Shown here piece after piece: positions 4,412-52,497 of a stretch of DNA of 64,000 bases (position 1 is the stretch's first letter; each line of letters opens with the position of its first letter). Origin of the DNA: Parcubacteria group bacterium GW2011_GWC1_45_14 (lineage in GTDB: Bacteria > Patescibacteriota > Minisyncoccia > Moranbacterales > GWC2-37-73); NCBI GenBank assembly GCA_001001345.1, contig LCKI01000001.1:339-64338 (forward strand), read 5' to 3'. The notes under the pieces were generated by a model. That model ran no database searches, was not told the origin of the DNA, and saw only the letters and a list, made by a program, of their open reading frames with translations. A program made the translations under genes and the position numbers.

Positions 4412-7400
4412 CTAAGCAAGTTCCACGCTGCCATGCAGGACGATGGATTTCAACTCCTCGATGATTTCGTCCGTGTGTTCTATGGAGAACGGAGTCTGAA
4501 GCTTGGTTTCATTGTGATGGAGAACGACCTTGGTGTCACCGCTTTTGCAGTCCTTGAAAAATTTCCCTAGCCGATGGATGATTTCCGGCGTGGCGTTGTG
4601 GGGAAGTTTTATAAGAAGGCTTCCTGTGGGAGCTGTATGGTTTTGAGATGGCTGATCCGTCGAGGGTGCTGGCGGAGGAGTCTGGTCGTCATCGTTCTTG
4701 TTTTCCTGGTGATACGTTTTTTGTGTCAGCCTGATGCGCATGAATTCGTCGACTTCGTGGCGGTTAAGCTCGTTCGCTTCGTCGGCAATGAGTTTGAAGG
4801 ACCCGTCCTTGTCCGAGAGGCGTCCTTCGGCGATTATCATCCTTTCTTCCTCCCAGGCGCTTTGGGTCTTTTCCAATACCCTTGGAAAAACCAAAAGCTC
4901 AATCCTGCCCTTGGTGTCCTCGAGCGTGACGAAAAGCATGGTTTCATGGCGCTTGGTCAGAATTTTCTGGACTTTCTGGATGACGCCCCCGACCTTGATT
5001 CTTTGTCCGACCATTTCCTTGGAGAGGCTGGCAATCGGAGTAGCGGCTTCGTCTAGGAAATCTTGGAATTCGGCGACCGGGTGGTCTGTCACATAGAGTC
5101 CCAGGAGTTCTTTTTCCCATTTCAATCTTTCTTTTTTCGTGGAAGGTTCGCATTCCGTCATTTGTATAGTCGGCGACTCCAGGATTTCCGCGCCGAAAAG
5201 ACTCACCTGGTTTGAATCTTTATTTTTCTGGATATTTTTGGAAAAGCTTATGATATTCTCGATGTTCTCGATAATCTGTTTCCTTTCTCCAAGATCGTCG
5301 AGCGCGCCGACTTTCGCCAGGGCTTCAATGGATTTTTTGTTGAGGTCTTTGGTTTGCACGCGTTCGACAAGGTCGGCCAGCGATTTGAATTTGCCGTTCG
5401 CTTTCCTTTCTTTGACGATCTCTTCTGCGACGACATGGCCGACGTTTTTGATGGCGTTAAGTCCGAAGCGGATCCTGTTTTTGCCATCGTCTCCTAAAAT
5501 CACCGCGAAGTTTTCAAAACTTTCATTGACGTCCGGAGGGAGGACTTCGATTCCCATGTCGCGCGTTTCGTCCACTTCGATAGCGATGCGGTCGATGTTG
5601 TCCTGGTCGGAAGTGAGGAGCGCAGCCATGAAAGCTTCGGGGTAGTGCGCTTTTAGATATGCCGTCTGATAACCGATGAGGGCGTAGCAGGCCGCATGCG
5701 AACGGTTGAAACCGTAGCCGGCGAACGGTTCGATGAATGAGAATACTTTTTCGCCGATTTCCTTGCTGACTCCGTTTTTGACGCAACCTTCCACGAATTT
5801 TATTTTCTGTTCCTGAATGAGGTCGAGGATTTTCTTTCCCATGGCTTTTCGAAGCACGTCCGCTTCTCCCATGGAAAAACCGGCCAAGGCCCTGGCGATC
5901 TGCATGACCTGTTCCTGGTAGACCGCTACTCCATAGGTGTTTTTGAGGATCGGTTCAAGCTTGGGGTGGACATAGCTGACCTTCCTGGTGCCATGCTTTC
6001 CGGAAATGAAGTCCGGAATCCAATCCATCGGTCCGGGACGATAAAGAGCCACCATGGCGATGATGTCTTCGATGACGGTGGGCTTGAGAAGCTTGAGATA
6101 TCTTTTCATCCCCGAGCTTTCGAATTGGAACACGCCGGTCGTTTTGCCGTCCTGGAAAAGCTTGTAAGCAAGCTCATCGTCGACCGGAAGTTCGTCGATG
6201 TTTATTTCGACTCCTTTGGTTTTTTTGATGATGCGGATGGCGTTTTGGATGATGGTGAGGTTTTTGAGTCCCAAAAAGTCCATCTTGAGAAGGCCGATCT
6301 TTTCCACGTAACTAGTTTTAGTGGAAGATGAATATTGGGTCACCGTCCCTTCGCGCGCCCCGGTGATGTTCTGGATGGGAGTGTATTCTGTTACCGGTTC
6401 TTTCGTAATCACAACTCCGCAGGCATGCATACCGGCGTGGCGCGAAACTCCTTCGAGTCGCATGGCGTTGTTGATGAGTTTTTTTGCATCCTCTCCGGAT
6501 TCATAATGCGTTTTGAATTCAGGTACTTCCTCCAGGGCTTTTTTAATGGAGGTGAACATTGGGATCATCTTGGAGGTCTTGTCGCAAAAATCATAGGGAA
6601 GTCCAAGTGCTCTTCCTGTGTCGCGGATGGCGGCTCGCGCAGCCATCGTTCCAAAAGTTATGATTTGCGCCACATGGTCGTCGCCATATTTCTTCCTTAC
6701 GTATGCAAGGACGTCGTCGCGTCTGTCGTCGGCGAAATCCATATCGACGTCGGGCATGGACACTCTTTCCGGATTAAGGAATCTTTCGAAAAGAAGGTCG
6801 TATTGTATGGGATCCACGTTGGTGATTCCTACTAGGTAGGATACGAAACTTCCGGCCGCGCTTCCTCTGCCTGGACCCACGACGATTCCGTTTTCTTTAG
6901 CCCAATTGACGAAATCCTGGACGATCAAAAAGTATGAGGAGTAGCCGCATTTTTCAATAACGGAAAGTTCATAGTCCATCCTTTCTTCGTGCACATTGGT
7001 GTGCTGTCCTTTGTATCTTTTCTCAAGTCCTTCCTTGGTGAGATGGCGTAAGTATGTGACATCGGTGAAACCTTCCGGAACTTCAAAATGCGGGAGCTGG
7101 GTTTCGCCGAGCTTGAGGTGGAAATCGCAGAGCTCCACGACTTTCTGCGTGTTCTCCAGAACCTCGGGGTGGTCCGGGAAACTGGATAGGACTTCCTCAG
7201 GGGATCGGAGTGAAAGATCGAAGTCCATAAGATTCATTCTGTCTGTTTCCTGTACCTTTCTGTTGGTTTGCACGCAAAGAAGGATGTCTTGAGCGGTCGC
7301 ATCTTCTTTTTTGACGTAATGCACGTCGCAGGTCGCCACGACCGGAATGTTGAGTTCTTTGGAGAGTTTGAATATCCCGTCGTTGGCTATCTTTTGGTTT

Positions 7401-50598: not shown

Positions 50599-50605
50599 CA
50601 GGAGT

Positions 50606-50641
50606 AGTATTTAGTATTTAGTATTTAGTATTTAGTATTTT
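50606..50641. repeat. 7-bp tandem repeat (gtattta)x4.5 followed by a hairpin aatactgtatacaagatacagtatt
   Basis: direct inspection. Confidence 0.7.
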
Positions 50642-50682: not shown

Positions 50683-50765
50683 GGGTAGTTGGCGGAGTGG
50701 TCAATCGCAGCTGACTGTAAATCAGCCGACTTCGGTCTTCGGGGGTTCGAATCCCTCACTGCCCA
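50683..50765 (+). tRNA. tRNA-Tyr(GUA) with long variable arm
   Basis: acceptor GGGTAGT/ACTGCCC, anticodon loop CTGTAAA, T-loop GGTTCGAATCC. Confidence 0.8.
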
Positions 50766-50862: not shown

Positions 50863-51156
50863 ATGATCACGCGGCACGGCCGTGAGGGATTCTACTATGT
50901 ATATGTCATAGAAAATGACCATGATTTGAGTTGGTATATTGGATTTACGATTAATTTTGGAAAAAGATTGCAGGAGCACAACTCCGGTAAATCACCGTAT
51001 ACTTCCAGGAAACAGGGAAAACGGAGGGTTATATATGCGGAGTGTTATCTTTCCAAAAAAGATGCGTTGTCAAGGGAGGAATTCTTGAAATCCGGTTCTG
51101 GTAGAAGATTTTTAAAGAACCAATTAAAGAACTACTTGCACGCGACGCCGTTGTAG
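50863..51156 (+). CDS. GIY-YIG nuclease domain protein (YhbQ/UPF0213-like), stop overlaps 5' end of tRNA-Thr(GGU)
   Basis: FYYVYVIEN...WYIGFTINFGKRLQEHNSG. Confidence 0.6.
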   Translation: MITRHGREGFYYVYVIENDHDLSWYIGFTINFGKRLQEHNSGKSPYTSRKQGKRRVIYAECYLSKKDALSREEFLKSGSGRRFLKNQLKNYLHATPL

Positions 51157-51415
51157 CTCAGTCGGTAGAGCGTATCCATGGTAAAATTTTGCCCACCGCA
51201 TGGGAAACCAAGCGGTGAATCCCGAATAACGGTTAAAGGCCTCGCATAAGGTTCAGACCGTGGCGTCAGCAAGGCGCCCGAACGACTGACAAGGGGAGCT
51301 GCGTCCGAAAGGATATGCTCAATATACAGTCTAATCCTCTACGATATATGTTTGTTGGAAAAATAGAGGTGTTAAATGAAGGATAAGGTCCGCGGTTCGA
51401 TCCCGCGCAACGGCT
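51147..51415 (+). tRNA. tRNA-Thr(GGU) interrupted after anticodon by ~196-nt group I intron
   Basis: 5' exon GCCGTTGTAGCTCAGTCGGTAGAGCGTATCCATGGT, 3' exon AAGGATAAGGTCCGCGGTTCGATCCCGCGCAACGGCT form a complete cloverleaf when joined. Confidence 0.6.
51183..51378 (+). ncRNA. Group I self-splicing intron (Azoarcus tRNA-Ile-like IC3 architecture)
   Basis: follows exon U, ends with G; CCGCATGGGAAACCAAGCGG (P3/P4-like), GGTTCAGACCG and ATATACAGTCTAA (P7 strands CAGAC/GTCTA). Confidence 0.55.
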
Positions 51416-51424
51416 CAGGGAAAA

Positions 51425-51457
51425 AGTAATCAGTAATCAGTAATCAGTAATCAGTAA
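51425..51457. repeat. 7-bp tandem repeat (gtaatca)x4.5 following tRNA-Thr(GGU)
   Basis: direct inspection. Confidence 0.7.
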
Positions 51458-51505
51458 GCGTTAAACAATAACGAATAACCGATAATTGATAATAAATTTA
51501 TTTTT

Positions 51506-51667
51506 ATGGGACACATCAAGGACACGATGGCGAAGATGCGATGCTCCGAATGCAAGGAGATCAACTATTATTCTTCACGCAACAAGAAGAAAGTGAAGGA
51601 GAAACTTGAGATGAACAAGTATTGCAAGAGATGCCAGAAGCATACGCTTCACAAGGAAATGAAATAA
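51506..51667 (+). CDS. rpmG: 50S ribosomal protein L33
   Basis: [44 protein letters not shown]; below ORF-track cut-off. Confidence 0.8.
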
Positions 51668-51733
51668 CCTGTCAGTCGCGACTGACGGGTTAAACCCGTT
51701 GCTCGCGAGCGACGGGTTAGCTCCTTCTGACTT

Positions 51734-51982
51734 ATGCATTACGTCTATCTTCTTAAATTGGAAAACACCAAAAAGAATTTTTATATTGGTTGTACTTCTG
51801 ATTTGAAGAGGCGTTTACGTGAGCATCAGTCTGGGAATACTCAAACGACAAAAGGAAAAAATCCCAAACTTATCTATTATGAAGCATTTTCCGATAAGGA
51901 TTTGGCTCAAAAAAGAGAAGAGGGATTGAAAACAAGCGGATCCGTTTATAATGCGCTGATAAGAAGGTTGGGATTAAGATAA
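51734..51982 (+). CDS. Second GIY-YIG nuclease domain protein, flanked by 20-nt direct repeats
   Basis: HYVYLLKLEN...FYIGCTSDLKRRLREHQSG. Confidence 0.6.
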   Translation: MHYVYLLKLENTKKNFYIGCTSDLKRRLREHQSGNTQTTKGKNPKLIYYEAFSDKDLAQKREEGLKTSGSVYNALIRRLGLR

Positions 51983-51986
51983 GATT

Positions 51987-52055
51987 GCGGGCATCGTATA
52001 GTGGTAATACGGCGGTCTCACCAGTCAGTCGCGACTGACGGGTGTCTCCAAAACC
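51987..52055 (+). pseudogene. Pseudo tRNA-Trp: 5' half (to anticodon loop) carrying 26-nt palindromic insertion with ctc duplication, no T-arm/3' half
   Basis: identical to 52088-52120 of intact tRNA-Trp then accagtcagtcgcgactgacgggtgt insert. Confidence 0.45.
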
Positions 52056-52087
52056 TCCATTTTTAAAAATTGTGATTATATAAGTCT

Positions 52088-52158
52088 GCGGGCATCGTAT
52101 AGTGGTAATACGGCGGTCTCCAAAACCGTTAACGTGGGTTCGATTCCTACTGCCCGTG
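52088..52158 (+). tRNA. tRNA-Trp(CCA)
   Basis: anticodon loop CTCCAAA, T-loop GGGTTCGATTCC, acceptor GCGGGCA/TGCCCGT. Confidence 0.75.
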
Positions 52159-52162
52159 CAAT

Positions 52163-52210: not shown

Positions 52211-52335
52211 GTATTGATGCGTAGGAATCGAAGGGTATTTCAAAAAGGCAAACTGCTTTGCGTTTTTGAAAACCCAGGCTTTGAAGGAGGAAATGAGGCA
52301 TGTGCTTGCAAAGCACGCCGAATGACGGGTGAAAA

Positions 52336-52355
52336 GGATTCCTACTGCCCGTGCA
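52336..52355. repeat. 20-nt direct repeat of tRNA-Trp 3' end (gattcctactgcccgtgcaa), att-site-like
   Basis: identical to 52141-52160. Confidence 0.45.
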
Positions 52356-52497
52356 AATTAATGAAAAAACGCTTATTTAGGGCGTTTTTTTGTATCTTCT
52401 ACTTCTATAATATTTTTTAATATTGACAATTTTTTTAAAACCTTGTATATTTTCATGAAAGTTTTGTTCCTTAAACAATTTCGAGAGGAGAAGCGCC

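Follow-up and report, generated by a model that had tools for sequence, protein, structure and literature searches.

The locus was analysed within a 64-kb stretch of DNA, hereafter the window, from an ultra-small Candidate Phyla Radiation (CPR) bacterium. It comprises a small GIY-YIG nuclease gene, a broken tRNA-Trp copy and three 24-nt hairpin repeats, all beside tRNA-Trp. The left neighbour is rpmG (ribosomal protein L33; 51506..51667, + strand), an open reading frame that matched Pfam Ribosomal_L33 with 63.5 bits and whose stop codon lies 2 nt ahead of the first hairpin repeat, palindrome a (51667..51690). Palindrome b (51694..51717) follows, then GIY-YIG gene 2 (51734..51982, + strand) and a pseudo 5' half of tRNA-Trp (51987-52019, + strand). 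This half is interrupted by palindrome c (52019..52044) and resumes with the rest of a pseudo anticodon arm (52045..52055, + strand). A 32-nt spacer (52056..52087, + strand) leads to the functional tRNA-Trp(CCA) (52088..52159, + strand; ARAGORN; Rfam tRNA, 63.3 bits). The GIY-YIG gene is the sole ORF between the repeats, with rpmG and a radical-SAM gene as neighbours; no tyrosine or serine recombinase and no HUH (RAYT) or DDE transposase is present at the locus. GIY-YIG gene 1 of the window adjoins a tRNA-Thr(GGU) gene whose anticodon loop carries an intron.

The original prediction had placed a GIY-YIG ORF between two copies of a 20-mer. That ORF is intact and encodes a UPF0213/YhbQ-like protein of 82 aa that consists of the catalytic domain only. 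Pfam PF01541 matched residues 1-67 with 52.1 bits against a cut-off of 22.6 (E 8e-14). The family profile matched the UPF0213 structures 1zg2 (E 1.4e-8) and 1ywl best, followed by SLX1. These best solved-structure matches, the UPF0213/YhbQ proteins BH0048 (1zg2) and EF2693 (1ywl) and the SLX1 core, share the size of the window protein and its restriction to a catalytic domain. SLX1 acts with its partner SLX4 on branched DNA. Residues Y5, Y17, G19, R27, H31 and E62 were invariant in 21-32 aligned homologues and are all present in the window protein; the catalytic ones among them (Tyr of GIY, Tyr of YIG, Arg, His and Glu) correspond to Y6/Y17/R27/H31/E75 of I-TevI. The dN/dS of the ORF was 0.04-0.17 and, judged from this ratio and the invariant residues, the protein looks active. 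Domain searches detected no sequence-specific DNA-binding domain beyond the Pfam domain in the 82 aa; characterised GIY-YIG homing enzymes carry a DNA-binding domain. We know of no UPF0213 protein with demonstrated activity.

The 20-mer GTCAGTCGCGACTGACGGGT was found twice (51671-51690 and 52024-52043), whereas 0 matches arose in 100 shuffles of the window that preserved dinucleotides. A palindrome had been reported inside each copy, and both copies proved to be the core of a 24-nt near-palindrome. The first copy is included in palindrome a (ACCTGTCAGTCG and CGACTGACGGGT as its two halves; repeat scan). The second is included in palindrome c, which extends to 26 nt (CACC...GGTG) around a 24-nt core at 52020-52043 (ACCAGTCAGTCG and CGACTGACGGGT). 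Palindrome b (sequence ACCCGTTGCTCGCGAGCGACGGGT, halves ACCCGTTGCTCG and CGAGCGACGGGT; repeat scan) at 51694-51717 is a third, diverged member beyond the two noted earlier; it belongs to the same family with another arm subtype that differs by compensatory changes. All three are 24 nt long, TCGCGA-centred and members of the family ACCnGTCnnTCGCGAnnGACnGGT, and they are the sole family copies in the 64 kb. Palindromes a and b folded together gave -35.1 kcal/mol (z -6.4). A frequent terminator motif had been named as the alternative for the 20-mer. It is borne out so far as the family is dispersed in other genomes, and fails in that the 20-mer is not frequent in the window and is not a terminator: at all three palindromes a terminator scan came up empty on the + strand, and no T-tract follows any of them.

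Family members were then compared across loci. Of 123 non-redundant family copies, 26 share the insertion point of palindrome c together with its TCT duplication, and every one of these is of the tRNA-Trp type; the same insertion is found in loci of configuration A (for example L021, L024, L025, L026, L030 and L035). Identical 4-nt flanks were present in 21 of the 123; the chance level for the flank and TCT duplications is estimated at 1-2%. Nested copies were observed in L023 and L043. Of the 35 TCGCGA hexamers that lie no more than 450 nt from these ORFs, 34 form the middle of a palindrome whose arms measure at least 10 bp, and an earlier palindrome scan found no family member elsewhere in the same ~5-kb loci. 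Among metagenome copies, ~62 of 81 matches had no GIY-YIG gene or tRNA in the stretch examined and were scattered in intergenic DNA. Nuclease and palindrome are linked statistically and not exclusively. The site of palindrome a after the rpmG stop holds a homologous palindrome in L013, L017, L018, L019, L109 and L214; more generally, palindromes are placed variably around the ORF in relatives. Palindromes of the same subtype lie on either side of the ORF in the window, L013, L025, L028 and L033, and L163 has a same-subtype pair beside the ORF with the two copies 444 nt apart. Such flanking pairs suggest local copying, and the two 20-mers are probably local copies of each other. The proposal that they are a target duplication or the ends of a cassette was not upheld: their flanks differ, and they are members of an independent palindrome family that has short duplications (3-4 nt) of its own. 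The flanks of the palindromes are TAAACC, TAGCTC and GTCTCC.

The pseudo-tRNA had been described as a 5'-half copy of tRNA-Trp (51987-52055) without a T-arm, whose anticodon loop is interrupted by an insertion with the second 20-mer, flanked by a ctc duplication; this description was confirmed, with TCT(C) as the duplicated flank. The segments 51987-52019 (100% identical to the real gene) and 52045-52055 (TCTCCAAAACC, tRNA positions 31-41) make up positions 1-41 of the real tRNA-Trp, split by 25-26 nt, and the copy stops there. The direct repeat is longer than earlier noted and reaches into the last ~19 nt of the ORF. Alignment of 51968-52019 (+ strand) with 52070-52120 gave 90% over 52 nt, and the shorter alignment from the repeat scan 95% over 41 nt. 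Copy 1 runs from the final ~19 nt of the ORF through a linker of 4 nt to the tRNA part, positions 1-33/34 of tRNA-Trp; copy 2 is carried by the functional tRNA-Trp. The true duplication is ~52 nt and comprises the 3' end of the ORF and tRNA-Trp positions 1-34. In the window the ORF lies outside the two copies, which enclose palindrome c and the 32-nt spacer and nothing else; direct repeats of tRNA segments that flank the ORF, with an intact tRNA at one end, are present in relatives and with other tRNA types. The pseudo copy and palindrome c are lineage-specific, being missing in L214, L017 and L018.

In alignments to the ORF end and to the junction of relatives, the 3' 19 nt of the spacer are similar to the 3' end of the GIY-YIG gene (z 6.4), and the 5' end of the spacer to the 'CCAAAACC..ATGTATTA' junction (z 3.4-3.8). 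From these short alignments the spacer is probably what is left of a tandem duplication or of a second ORF copy that was deleted. Tandem ORF-pseudo-ORF-tRNA arrangements were seen in L019 and L031. An intron-containing or split tRNA was considered for the pseudo-tRNA and rejected: the copy has nothing 3' of position 41, and a complete tRNA follows after 32 nt. The interrupted copy is incomplete, which speaks against a tRNA intron of the group I or bulge-helix-bulge type, and it has no Rfam family match. Rfam at permissive thresholds returned noise only for the palindromes, the pseudo-tRNA and the downstream unit.

The association with tRNA-Trp is recurrent: across Patescibacteria the ORF family is essentially confined to sites beside this tRNA, in the same orientation. 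A same-strand tRNA-Trp (ARAGORN) adjoins the ORF in 29 of the 30 non-redundant loci with the ORF family, in hosts whose housekeeping proteins are merely 30-62% identical to those of the window. In most loci the tRNA starts 0-15 nt after the ORF stop; the gap is up to 105 nt where pseudo-tRNA or palindrome pieces lie between, and larger with a second ORF. At two loci tRNA-Trp ends right at the ORF start codon. The common order is pseudo-5'-half, TCTC, palindrome, TCTCCAAAAC, 3-10 nt, ATG to stop and intact tRNA (L014, L021, L023-L026, L029, L030, L032 and L035), and the mirror-image order was found in L034 and L036. Additional pseudo-3' pieces with palindromes are present in L024, L025 and L043. 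Pseudo pieces in L024, L025 and L026 differ from the resident functional tRNA, and L025 has a pseudo-3' half of the same type as the functional tRNA in L024. Among distant UPF0213-like ORFs from many phyla, a co-oriented tRNA lies within 400 nt in 37/59. Direct repeats flank 19 of these 59 ORFs; most are partial or whole tRNA copies of 90-100% identity and up to 171 nt, and the readable repeats stop at the anticodon loop or T-loop. Hairpins at the distant loci sit in the anticodon loops or T-loops of tRNA copies with 2-4-nt duplications.

An empty site, with rpmG followed directly by tRNA-Trp, was sought in relatives and was present in L004, L007 and L008 as rpmG, 36 nt and tRNA-Trp. L004 is the closest relative (PSP1 85%, EF-Ts 90%, S2 84% and L33 100% identical; tRNA-Trp 98.7% identical), and it lacks the ORF, the pseudo-tRNA and the palindromes. 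The window segment is an indel because none of its parts occurs in L004; the comparison of filled with empty sites is one between different species (rpmG dS 0.48). The 36-nt spacer of L004 was also considered as a decayed cassette scar. It holds TCCAAA, GCGGGC and GTCTC motifs, but its alignments were not distinguished from shuffles (p 0.29 and 0.09), and the site is treated as empty with these motifs as a caveat. The 87%-identical relative L214 has rpmG, palindrome a, palindrome b, the ORF and tRNA-Trp. No filled/empty polymorphism was found within the species; L213, with a 99%-identical homologue, is structurally identical. An ancestral arrangement, the second alternative raised beforehand, applies in part: the order rpmG-ORF-tRNA-Trp is common to many distant relatives, but it is missing in the closest.

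Mis-assembly of a mixed population, or chance similarity, as the source of the repeat and pseudo-tRNA is effectively refuted. In its favour, one related scaffold, L006, is a visible chimera, with N gaps and with window-like stretches of 100% identity set into a backbone that resembles L004. Against it, four independent assemblies (JGI, NCBI MAG and two ENA) have the same sequence and arrangement, which excludes an assembly artefact; shuffles gave 0 expected matches, and dozens of unrelated assemblies show the architecture again.

Synonymous sites were saturated among the ORF homologues, and ORF identity broadly tracks L33 identity, with L011 and L018 as outliers. In L011, L017 and L018 the ORF is better conserved than L33, PSP1 or TPR; dS was saturated and the overall trend vertical. 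Given the saturated dS and the tracking of L33, a long vertical descent in which the L004 lineage lost the gene fits about as well as recent gain. A phage vector was rejected, as neither the palindrome nor the ORF family was present in a viral contig collection.

We lean towards reading 51668-52087 as a small selfish element that is built around a UPF0213-type GIY-YIG nuclease and lives at tRNA-Trp, with a homing-type mechanism that we infer. The original prediction of a mobile cassette, or a homing event with target duplication, survives in part. The indel against the nearest relative, the duplicated tRNA-Trp segment and a nuclease gene of a homing-endonuclease superfamily inside the segment support it; the part that cast the 20-mers as target duplication or cassette ends does not stand.

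Under the homing reading, the nuclease would make a staggered break in the anticodon-loop region of the tRNA-Trp gene DNA. The break would be repaired off the cassette-bearing copy, with the conserved tRNA halves serving as homology arms. The recipient would be left with a pseudo-5'-half, the ORF and an intact tRNA, or the mirror image, and the essential tRNA would be restored without splicing. The 24-nt palindromes would be a nano-element in their own right, able to form hairpins and to make a target duplication of 3-4 nt. They would gather at break points (disabled tRNA loops and the centres of other palindromes) and near the nuclease gene. For the window, the lineage may have begun as rpmG, palindrome a, palindrome b, ORF and tRNA-Trp, as in L214. 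A second event at the anticodon arm would then have duplicated the 3' end of the ORF and the 5' half of the tRNA, and a copy of palindrome a would have landed in the redundant anticodon loop. Any intervening second ORF copy would have been deleted down to 32 nt. The homing model leaves self-cleavage unexplained: the intact tRNA-Trp beside the ORF keeps any target that lies within the tRNA.

An old resident gene, co-transcribed with tRNA-Trp, was weighed against this and is considered unlikely. On that account the hairpins would stabilise, process or terminate the RNA, the pseudo-tRNA would be a leader that remains from an old tandem duplication, and L004 would have lost the gene. The strong purifying selection with saturated dS, the conserved position and orientation of the ORF across classes and its rough agreement with L33 identity are all in keeping with a resident gene. 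So are the very stable hairpins that are predicted for many subfamilies immediately before the start codon and the palindrome arms, in which positions 4 and 5 covary. Against it, target-site duplications accompany the hairpins, some copies are nested, and others are scattered in either orientation in unrelated intergenic DNA, which argues for insertion at the DNA level and not for RNA design. The frequent mismatch at arm position 9 has no strand preference (A.G 5, C.A 5 and T.G 1), and a G.U preference at the RNA level was accordingly rejected at this mismatch. No palindrome is followed by a + strand T-tract, the pseudo-tRNA pieces of L024-L026 are of foreign type, the ORF is missing from the closest relative, and the same geometry occurs with different tRNAs and hairpins in many phyla.

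A transposon bounded by the palindromes is rated improbable. Here a GIY-YIG dimer would bind the dyad-symmetric GTCnnTCGCGAnnGAC and cut and move the segment between two palindromes, the cassette of the original prediction, and solo palindromes would be collapsed or non-autonomous forms, as REPs are to RAYT. Palindromes are recognised by some restriction enzymes of the GIY-YIG type (Eco29kI and Hpy188I). Palindromes lie on both sides of the ORF, often in the same subtype, in the window, L013, L022, L024, L025, L028, L033 and L043, with L163 in addition, and the two of L025 are identical over 24/24 nt. The 4-nt target duplications at solo copies and the nested insertions at palindrome centres would also be accommodated. 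However, palindromes are one-sided in L014, L021, L023, L030, L032 and L034-L036, and solely upstream in L017 and L018; the termini would be whole palindromes rather than half-sites; and no target duplication surrounds the supposed element in the window, where the flanks of palindromes a and c differ. Dispersed copies are common where the stretch examined shows no GIY-YIG gene, and the strict adjacency to tRNA-Trp and the duplications of tRNA halves would be left unexplained.

The proposed homing element was compared with known systems. PMC2330249 describes SegB, the free-standing GIY-YIG homing endonuclease of the T4 tRNA gene cluster, as making mostly 2-nt 3' overhangs. As with the Seg genes of T4-like phages, a non-intronic GIY-YIG gene lies among tRNA genes and is present or absent between relatives; spread with co-conversion of adjacent tRNA sequence and staggered cuts would be shared with SegB, cleavage by the window protein being our proposal. 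Seg proteins have a DNA-binding region, whereas the window protein is an 82-aa catalytic core alone. The host is a bacterial chromosome and not a phage, with no copies found in viral contigs, and the element includes palindromic insertions as well as one tRNA half in duplicate. Zeng et al. 2009 and Bonocora & Shub 2009 reportedly described collaborative homing between free-standing mobE and an endonuclease-less group I intron of nrdB in phage Aeh1. For GIY-YIG genes 1 and 2 alike, an insertion disrupts the presumed target of the nuclease beside a free-standing gene, as in that system. In contrast to it, the interrupted copy at gene 2 is a non-functional half gene, the functional tRNA is uninterrupted, and the insert is a 24-26-nt DNA palindrome and not a ribozyme.

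Genomic islands and prophages that carry an integrase reportedly use tRNA genes as integration sites, where direct repeats of tRNA fragments stay behind (Williams 2002). The window element resembles them in its partial-tRNA direct repeat, in the intact tRNA regenerated at one junction and in breakpoints in the anticodon loop or T-loop. It differs in having no integrase, in its total size of ~0.3-0.45 kb with one nuclease ORF, and in that duplication of the 5' half is the common form. Fragments of tRNA genes in prokaryotes are the subject of PMC9897764. The palindromes are like REP/RAYT and miniature inverted-repeat elements (MITEs) in being ~24-nt imperfect palindromes in intergenic DNA that cluster round one nuclease gene and conserve an asymmetric stem. 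Unlike in REP/RAYT, the associated gene is GIY-YIG and not an HUH/Y1 transposase, and copy number is low (three in 64 kb, at one locus). Target-site duplication, here of 3-4 nt, is a MITE feature; to our knowledge, REPs have none. PMC3293823 proposes an evolutionary model for the disruption of archaeal tRNA genes by mobile elements (intron-containing and split tRNAs), which is the same general question that the tRNA fragments of the window raise. In the archaeal case the split or intron-containing genes are functional, whereas here a complete tRNA is always kept and the fragments appear dead.

Literature searches returned phage SegB, organelle genomes and group I introns of tRNAs, and nothing on an association of UPF0213 or GIY-YIG with tRNAs and palindromes; as far as they show, UPF0213 has neither a described function nor a described genomic association. 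More tentatively, the UPF0213-type proteins in general, a widespread family with solved structures, may be nucleases of unrecognised minimal mobile elements (~0.3-0.45 kb) that home into the anticodon loop or T-loop of tRNAs. Such elements would carry a replacement part of the tRNA instead of splicing, its halves acting as portable homology arms, and the same activity would make staggered breaks that capture or mobilise the 24-nt hairpins. This would explain the pile-up of hairpins in disabled tRNA loops beside the gene.

Many of the ORF homologues sit on 1-3-kb contigs. If the homing reading is true, these loci would yield tRNA fragments, broken assemblies and missed tRNA genes, which would be of use in annotation. 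Reduced Candidate Phyla Radiation genomes would harbour a palindromic insertion element that is very small and duplicates its target. Selfish DNA has two known ways into essential tRNA genes, self-splicing introns and integrase-borne islands. The element would represent a third, with duplication of half the gene in place of splicing, and it would give the orphan nuclease family UPF0213 a concrete, testable role.

At the rpmG/tRNA-Trp locus, rpmG (51506-51667) is followed by palindrome a, a 24-nt near-palindrome (ACCTGTCAGTCG/CGACTGACGGGT), and palindrome b (ACCCGTTGCTCG/CGAGCGACGGGT; 51694-51717), of the same TCGCGA-centred family and a different arm subtype. An intact GIY-YIG ORF of 82 aa (gene 2; 51734-51982; Pfam 52.1 bits) and a 4-nt linker precede a pseudo tRNA-Trp half comprising tRNA positions 1-34 (51987-52019). 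Palindrome c, a 24-nt near-palindrome (ACCAGTCAGTCG/CGACTGACGGGT), then lies between a duplicated TCT(C), with TCTCCAAAACC directly 3' and a 32-nt spacer before the real tRNA-Trp (52088-52159). Palindromes a, b and c were the sole family copies within the 64-kb window. The 20-mer GTCAGTCGCGACTGACGGGT forms the core of palindromes a (51671-51690) and c (52024-52043). Both copies, the second inside the pseudo tRNA-Trp, were present as described in the original prediction, with 0 matches in 100 shuffles and the arrangement concordant in four independent assemblies. They had been taken to bracket the ORF as a mobile cassette or homing event; the true direct repeat is instead 51968-52019 versus 52070-52120 (90% over 52 nt), spanning ~19 nt at the ORF 3' end and the tRNA 5' half.

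A second species (loci L004, L007 and L008), located by exact look-up of the L33 protein, was the nearest available relative (PSP1 85%, EF-Ts 90%, S2 84% and L33 100% identical; rpmG dS 0.48 relative to the window). All three loci carry rpmG, 36 nt and then tRNA-Trp, without ORF, pseudo-tRNA or palindrome. This is the empty site envisaged in the original prediction, and the window differs from its nearest relative by an indel. GIY-YIG gene 1 and the tRNA-Thr(GGU) insertion were both absent from this species too. Loss of an old gene in the L004 lineage is a serious alternative to insertion, because synonymous sites are saturated and the signal is broadly vertical. Within the species no polymorphism was seen on comparison with the 99%-identical homologue L213. 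The reading of the 36-nt L004 spacer as a decayed cassette scar was unsupported (p 0.09-0.29). The public scaffold L006 is chimeric, joining two co-occurring species (5293-5303, 5670-5679), with stretches 100% identical to the window placed between N gaps in an L004-like backbone; it should be used as an 'empty site' with caution.

The gene 2 protein consists of the catalytic domain only, and its closest solved structures were the UPF0213 proteins 1zg2 and 1ywl, followed by SLX1. Many homologues (48-87% identity) were found in Patescibacteria, with Y5, Y17, G19, R27, H31 and E62 invariant across the family and a dN/dS of 0.04-0.17, indicating purifying selection. Linkage to tRNA-Trp was strict: the ORF was co-oriented with it in 29 of 30 non-redundant loci, most with 0-15 nt between stop codon and tRNA-Trp start, and in two loci tRNA-Trp ended at the start codon. 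Hosts sharing this linkage were only 30-62% identical in housekeeping proteins.

Duplicated tRNA halves with breakpoints in loops recurred among these relatives. The commonest layout (L014, L021, L023-L026, L029, L030, L032, L035) comprised a pseudo tRNA-Trp 5' half to GGTCTC, a 25-26-nt palindrome, TCTCCAAAAC, 3-10 nt, the ORF from ATG to stop, and an intact tRNA. L034 and L036 were its mirror image (intact tRNA, ORF, pseudo copy from anticodon stem to 3' end), and the palindrome occupied the same position in the loop; pseudo pieces flanked both sides in L024, L025 and L043. Pseudo halves were often 100% identical to the adjacent functional tRNA (L023, L025, L030, L035 and the window). Foreign tRNA pieces also occurred: L024-L026 carried pseudo halves of a sequence type other than the functional neighbour, and the L025 pseudo 3' half was of the functional type of L024. 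The nearest subclade (L013, L017, L018, L019, L109, L214) has two palindromes directly 3' of the rpmG stop and the tRNA directly 3' of the ORF, so the pseudo copy, palindrome c and spacer of the window are a later lineage-specific addition. The spacer is similar to the ORF 3' end over its 3' 19 nt, and at its 5' end to the junction of the commonest layout; it is probably a remnant of a second ORF copy. A tandem ORF-pseudo-ORF-tRNA order was found in L019 and L031. Tandem ~112-nt units were observed in L022 (2760-2985) and L028 (2395-2870), each with a pseudo-tRNA-Trp 5' part, a palindrome in the D-loop and an end at anticodon-loop position 33, followed by a spacer that has AAATTGTGATTrATATAAGT in common with the window spacer (52068-52085). 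The 87%-identical relative L214 (55-170) has a palindrome after rpmG with a mutated centre, TCACGA, and its right arm repeated ~70 nt on, as if by insertion into the palindrome centre.

Every TCGCGA hexamer within 450 nt of the 30 ORFs was surveyed without preselection, and 34 of the 35 were palindrome centres with arms of 10 bp or more; scanning of the same ~5-kb loci gave no family member beyond this distance. Arm positions 4 and 5 covaried (CG 18, GC 9, TA 6, AT 1; AT 17, GC 14). Position 9 was often mismatched without strand bias, which argues for a DNA-level rather than an RNA-level hairpin. A metagenome scan returned 116 stretches matching CnGTCAGTCGCGACTGACnG; among the matches listed, about 19 of 81 adjoined this ORF family, usually with tRNA-Trp too, and the remainder were mostly in AT-rich intergenic DNA. 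The palindrome-nuclease link is thus not exclusive; in ORF-carrying genomes the palindrome was strongly concentrated at the ORF/tRNA-Trp locus. Identical 4-nt flanks (TTTA, TAAA, TCAA) were present in 21 of 123 non-redundant copies and the tRNA-type TCT duplication in 26 of 123, against a chance expectation that we estimate at 1-2%. Nested palindromes occurred at the centres of others (L023, L043). Target duplications, scattered copies and nesting indicate that the palindrome is itself an insertion element. No Rfam family matched it, and the terminator motif considered in the original prediction was rejected, since a terminator scan gave no + strand site at palindromes a, b or c. A second palindrome type (CCCCGCCyTTCGCGArGGCGGGG-like; L019 2810-2833, L031, L037 838-861, L042 2406-2427) lay in pseudo-tRNA-Trp upstream of related GIY-YIG ORFs as CTCCAA[hairpin]CGATTCC, replacing the anticodon-stem 3' strand, variable loop and T-stem 5' strand.

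Generality was sampled with 59 UPF0213-like ORFs that are more distantly related and come from many phyla. A co-oriented tRNA (Ser, Gln, Pro, Asp, Leu, Tyr, Asn, Arg, Gly and others) lay within 400 nt of 37. Direct repeats flanked 19 of the 59, most being partial or complete tRNA copies (90-100% identity, up to 171 nt) which, where readable, stopped at the anticodon loop or T-loop. Several loci had one or two other G+C-rich hairpins within the pseudo-copy loop, with 2-4-nt duplications, followed by the remaining loop and then the start codon.

Other tRNA-linked features were noted in the window. tRNA-Thr(GGU) (51144-51415), missed by both ARAGORN and Rfam, carries in its anticodon loop a 196-nt insert (51183-51378) that separates position 36 from position 37; T is the last base of the 5' exon and G that of the insert. 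This tRNA is uninterrupted in L004, and L013 has the same insert, a putative member of the 'divergent group I introns' that PMC13011429 mentions for Patescibacteria tRNA-Thr. Gene 1 (50863-51156; 97 aa, JGI call) shares 13 nt with the 5' end of tRNA-Thr(GGU), and its N-terminal codons repeat the tRNA-Tyr 3' end in inverted orientation (50878-50892 versus 50749-50763). In L011 the gene 1 homologue is followed by a different tRNA-Thr, after which comes a pseudo copy of the 3' part of the window-type tRNA-Thr. Gene 1 at the intron-bearing tRNA-Thr(GGU) conforms to the pattern of tRNA adjacency and appears to be a further case of the gene 2 phenomenon. Downstream of tRNA-Trp, a ~135-nt unit (52221-52357; predicted fold -48.7 kcal/mol, z -3.2) opens with GTAGGAATCGAA, the T-arm 3' strand in reverse complement, and closes with 20 nt identical to the tRNA 3' end from the T-loop on (52142-52161 = 52337-52356). 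It had no ORF or Rfam match and could represent either a structured RNA or a further small tRNA-linked element. Two units of this type occur in L004 (6332-6418, 6473-6572), and a homologous-core unit (cgaaggg..cccagg..ggag) follows tRNA-Tyr in L006 (5690-5775), ending in the tRNA-Tyr 3' end. Heptamer tandem arrays follow tRNA-Thr(UGU) ((TAGTATT)n, 50605-50641) and tRNA-Thr(GGU) ((AGTAATC)n, 51425-51459), with similar arrays at corresponding places in L011 and L006.

The cassette appears most like a few known systems, one of them collaborative homing, in which an intron occupies the target; here there is no splicing. Its geometry resembles that of integrase islands located in tRNA genes, without a recombinase, and its palindromes resemble REP/RAYT or MITE repeats, although no HUH or DDE transposase was seen at the locus. 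The cassette would work much like free-standing GIY-YIG homing genes, of which T4 SegB is presented in PMC2330249 as an example within a tRNA cluster; its protein differs in having no DNA-binding domain. Defining features of each of these systems are missing from the cassette. PMC13011429 describes group I introns in tRNA genes of Patescibacteria; the literature searched gave no description of UPF0213 genes at tRNA genes or of these palindromes.

A nuclease model is proposed, against which the missing DNA-binding domain counts; a further weak point is that the functional tRNA is left unprotected. The nuclease would break tRNA-gene DNA in loop regions, and a cassette-bearing copy would serve for repair with tRNA halves as homology arms, giving a pseudo half, the ORF and an intact tRNA. 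Such breaks would also be where palindromes are captured or mobilised, to survive only in the redundant tRNA copy.
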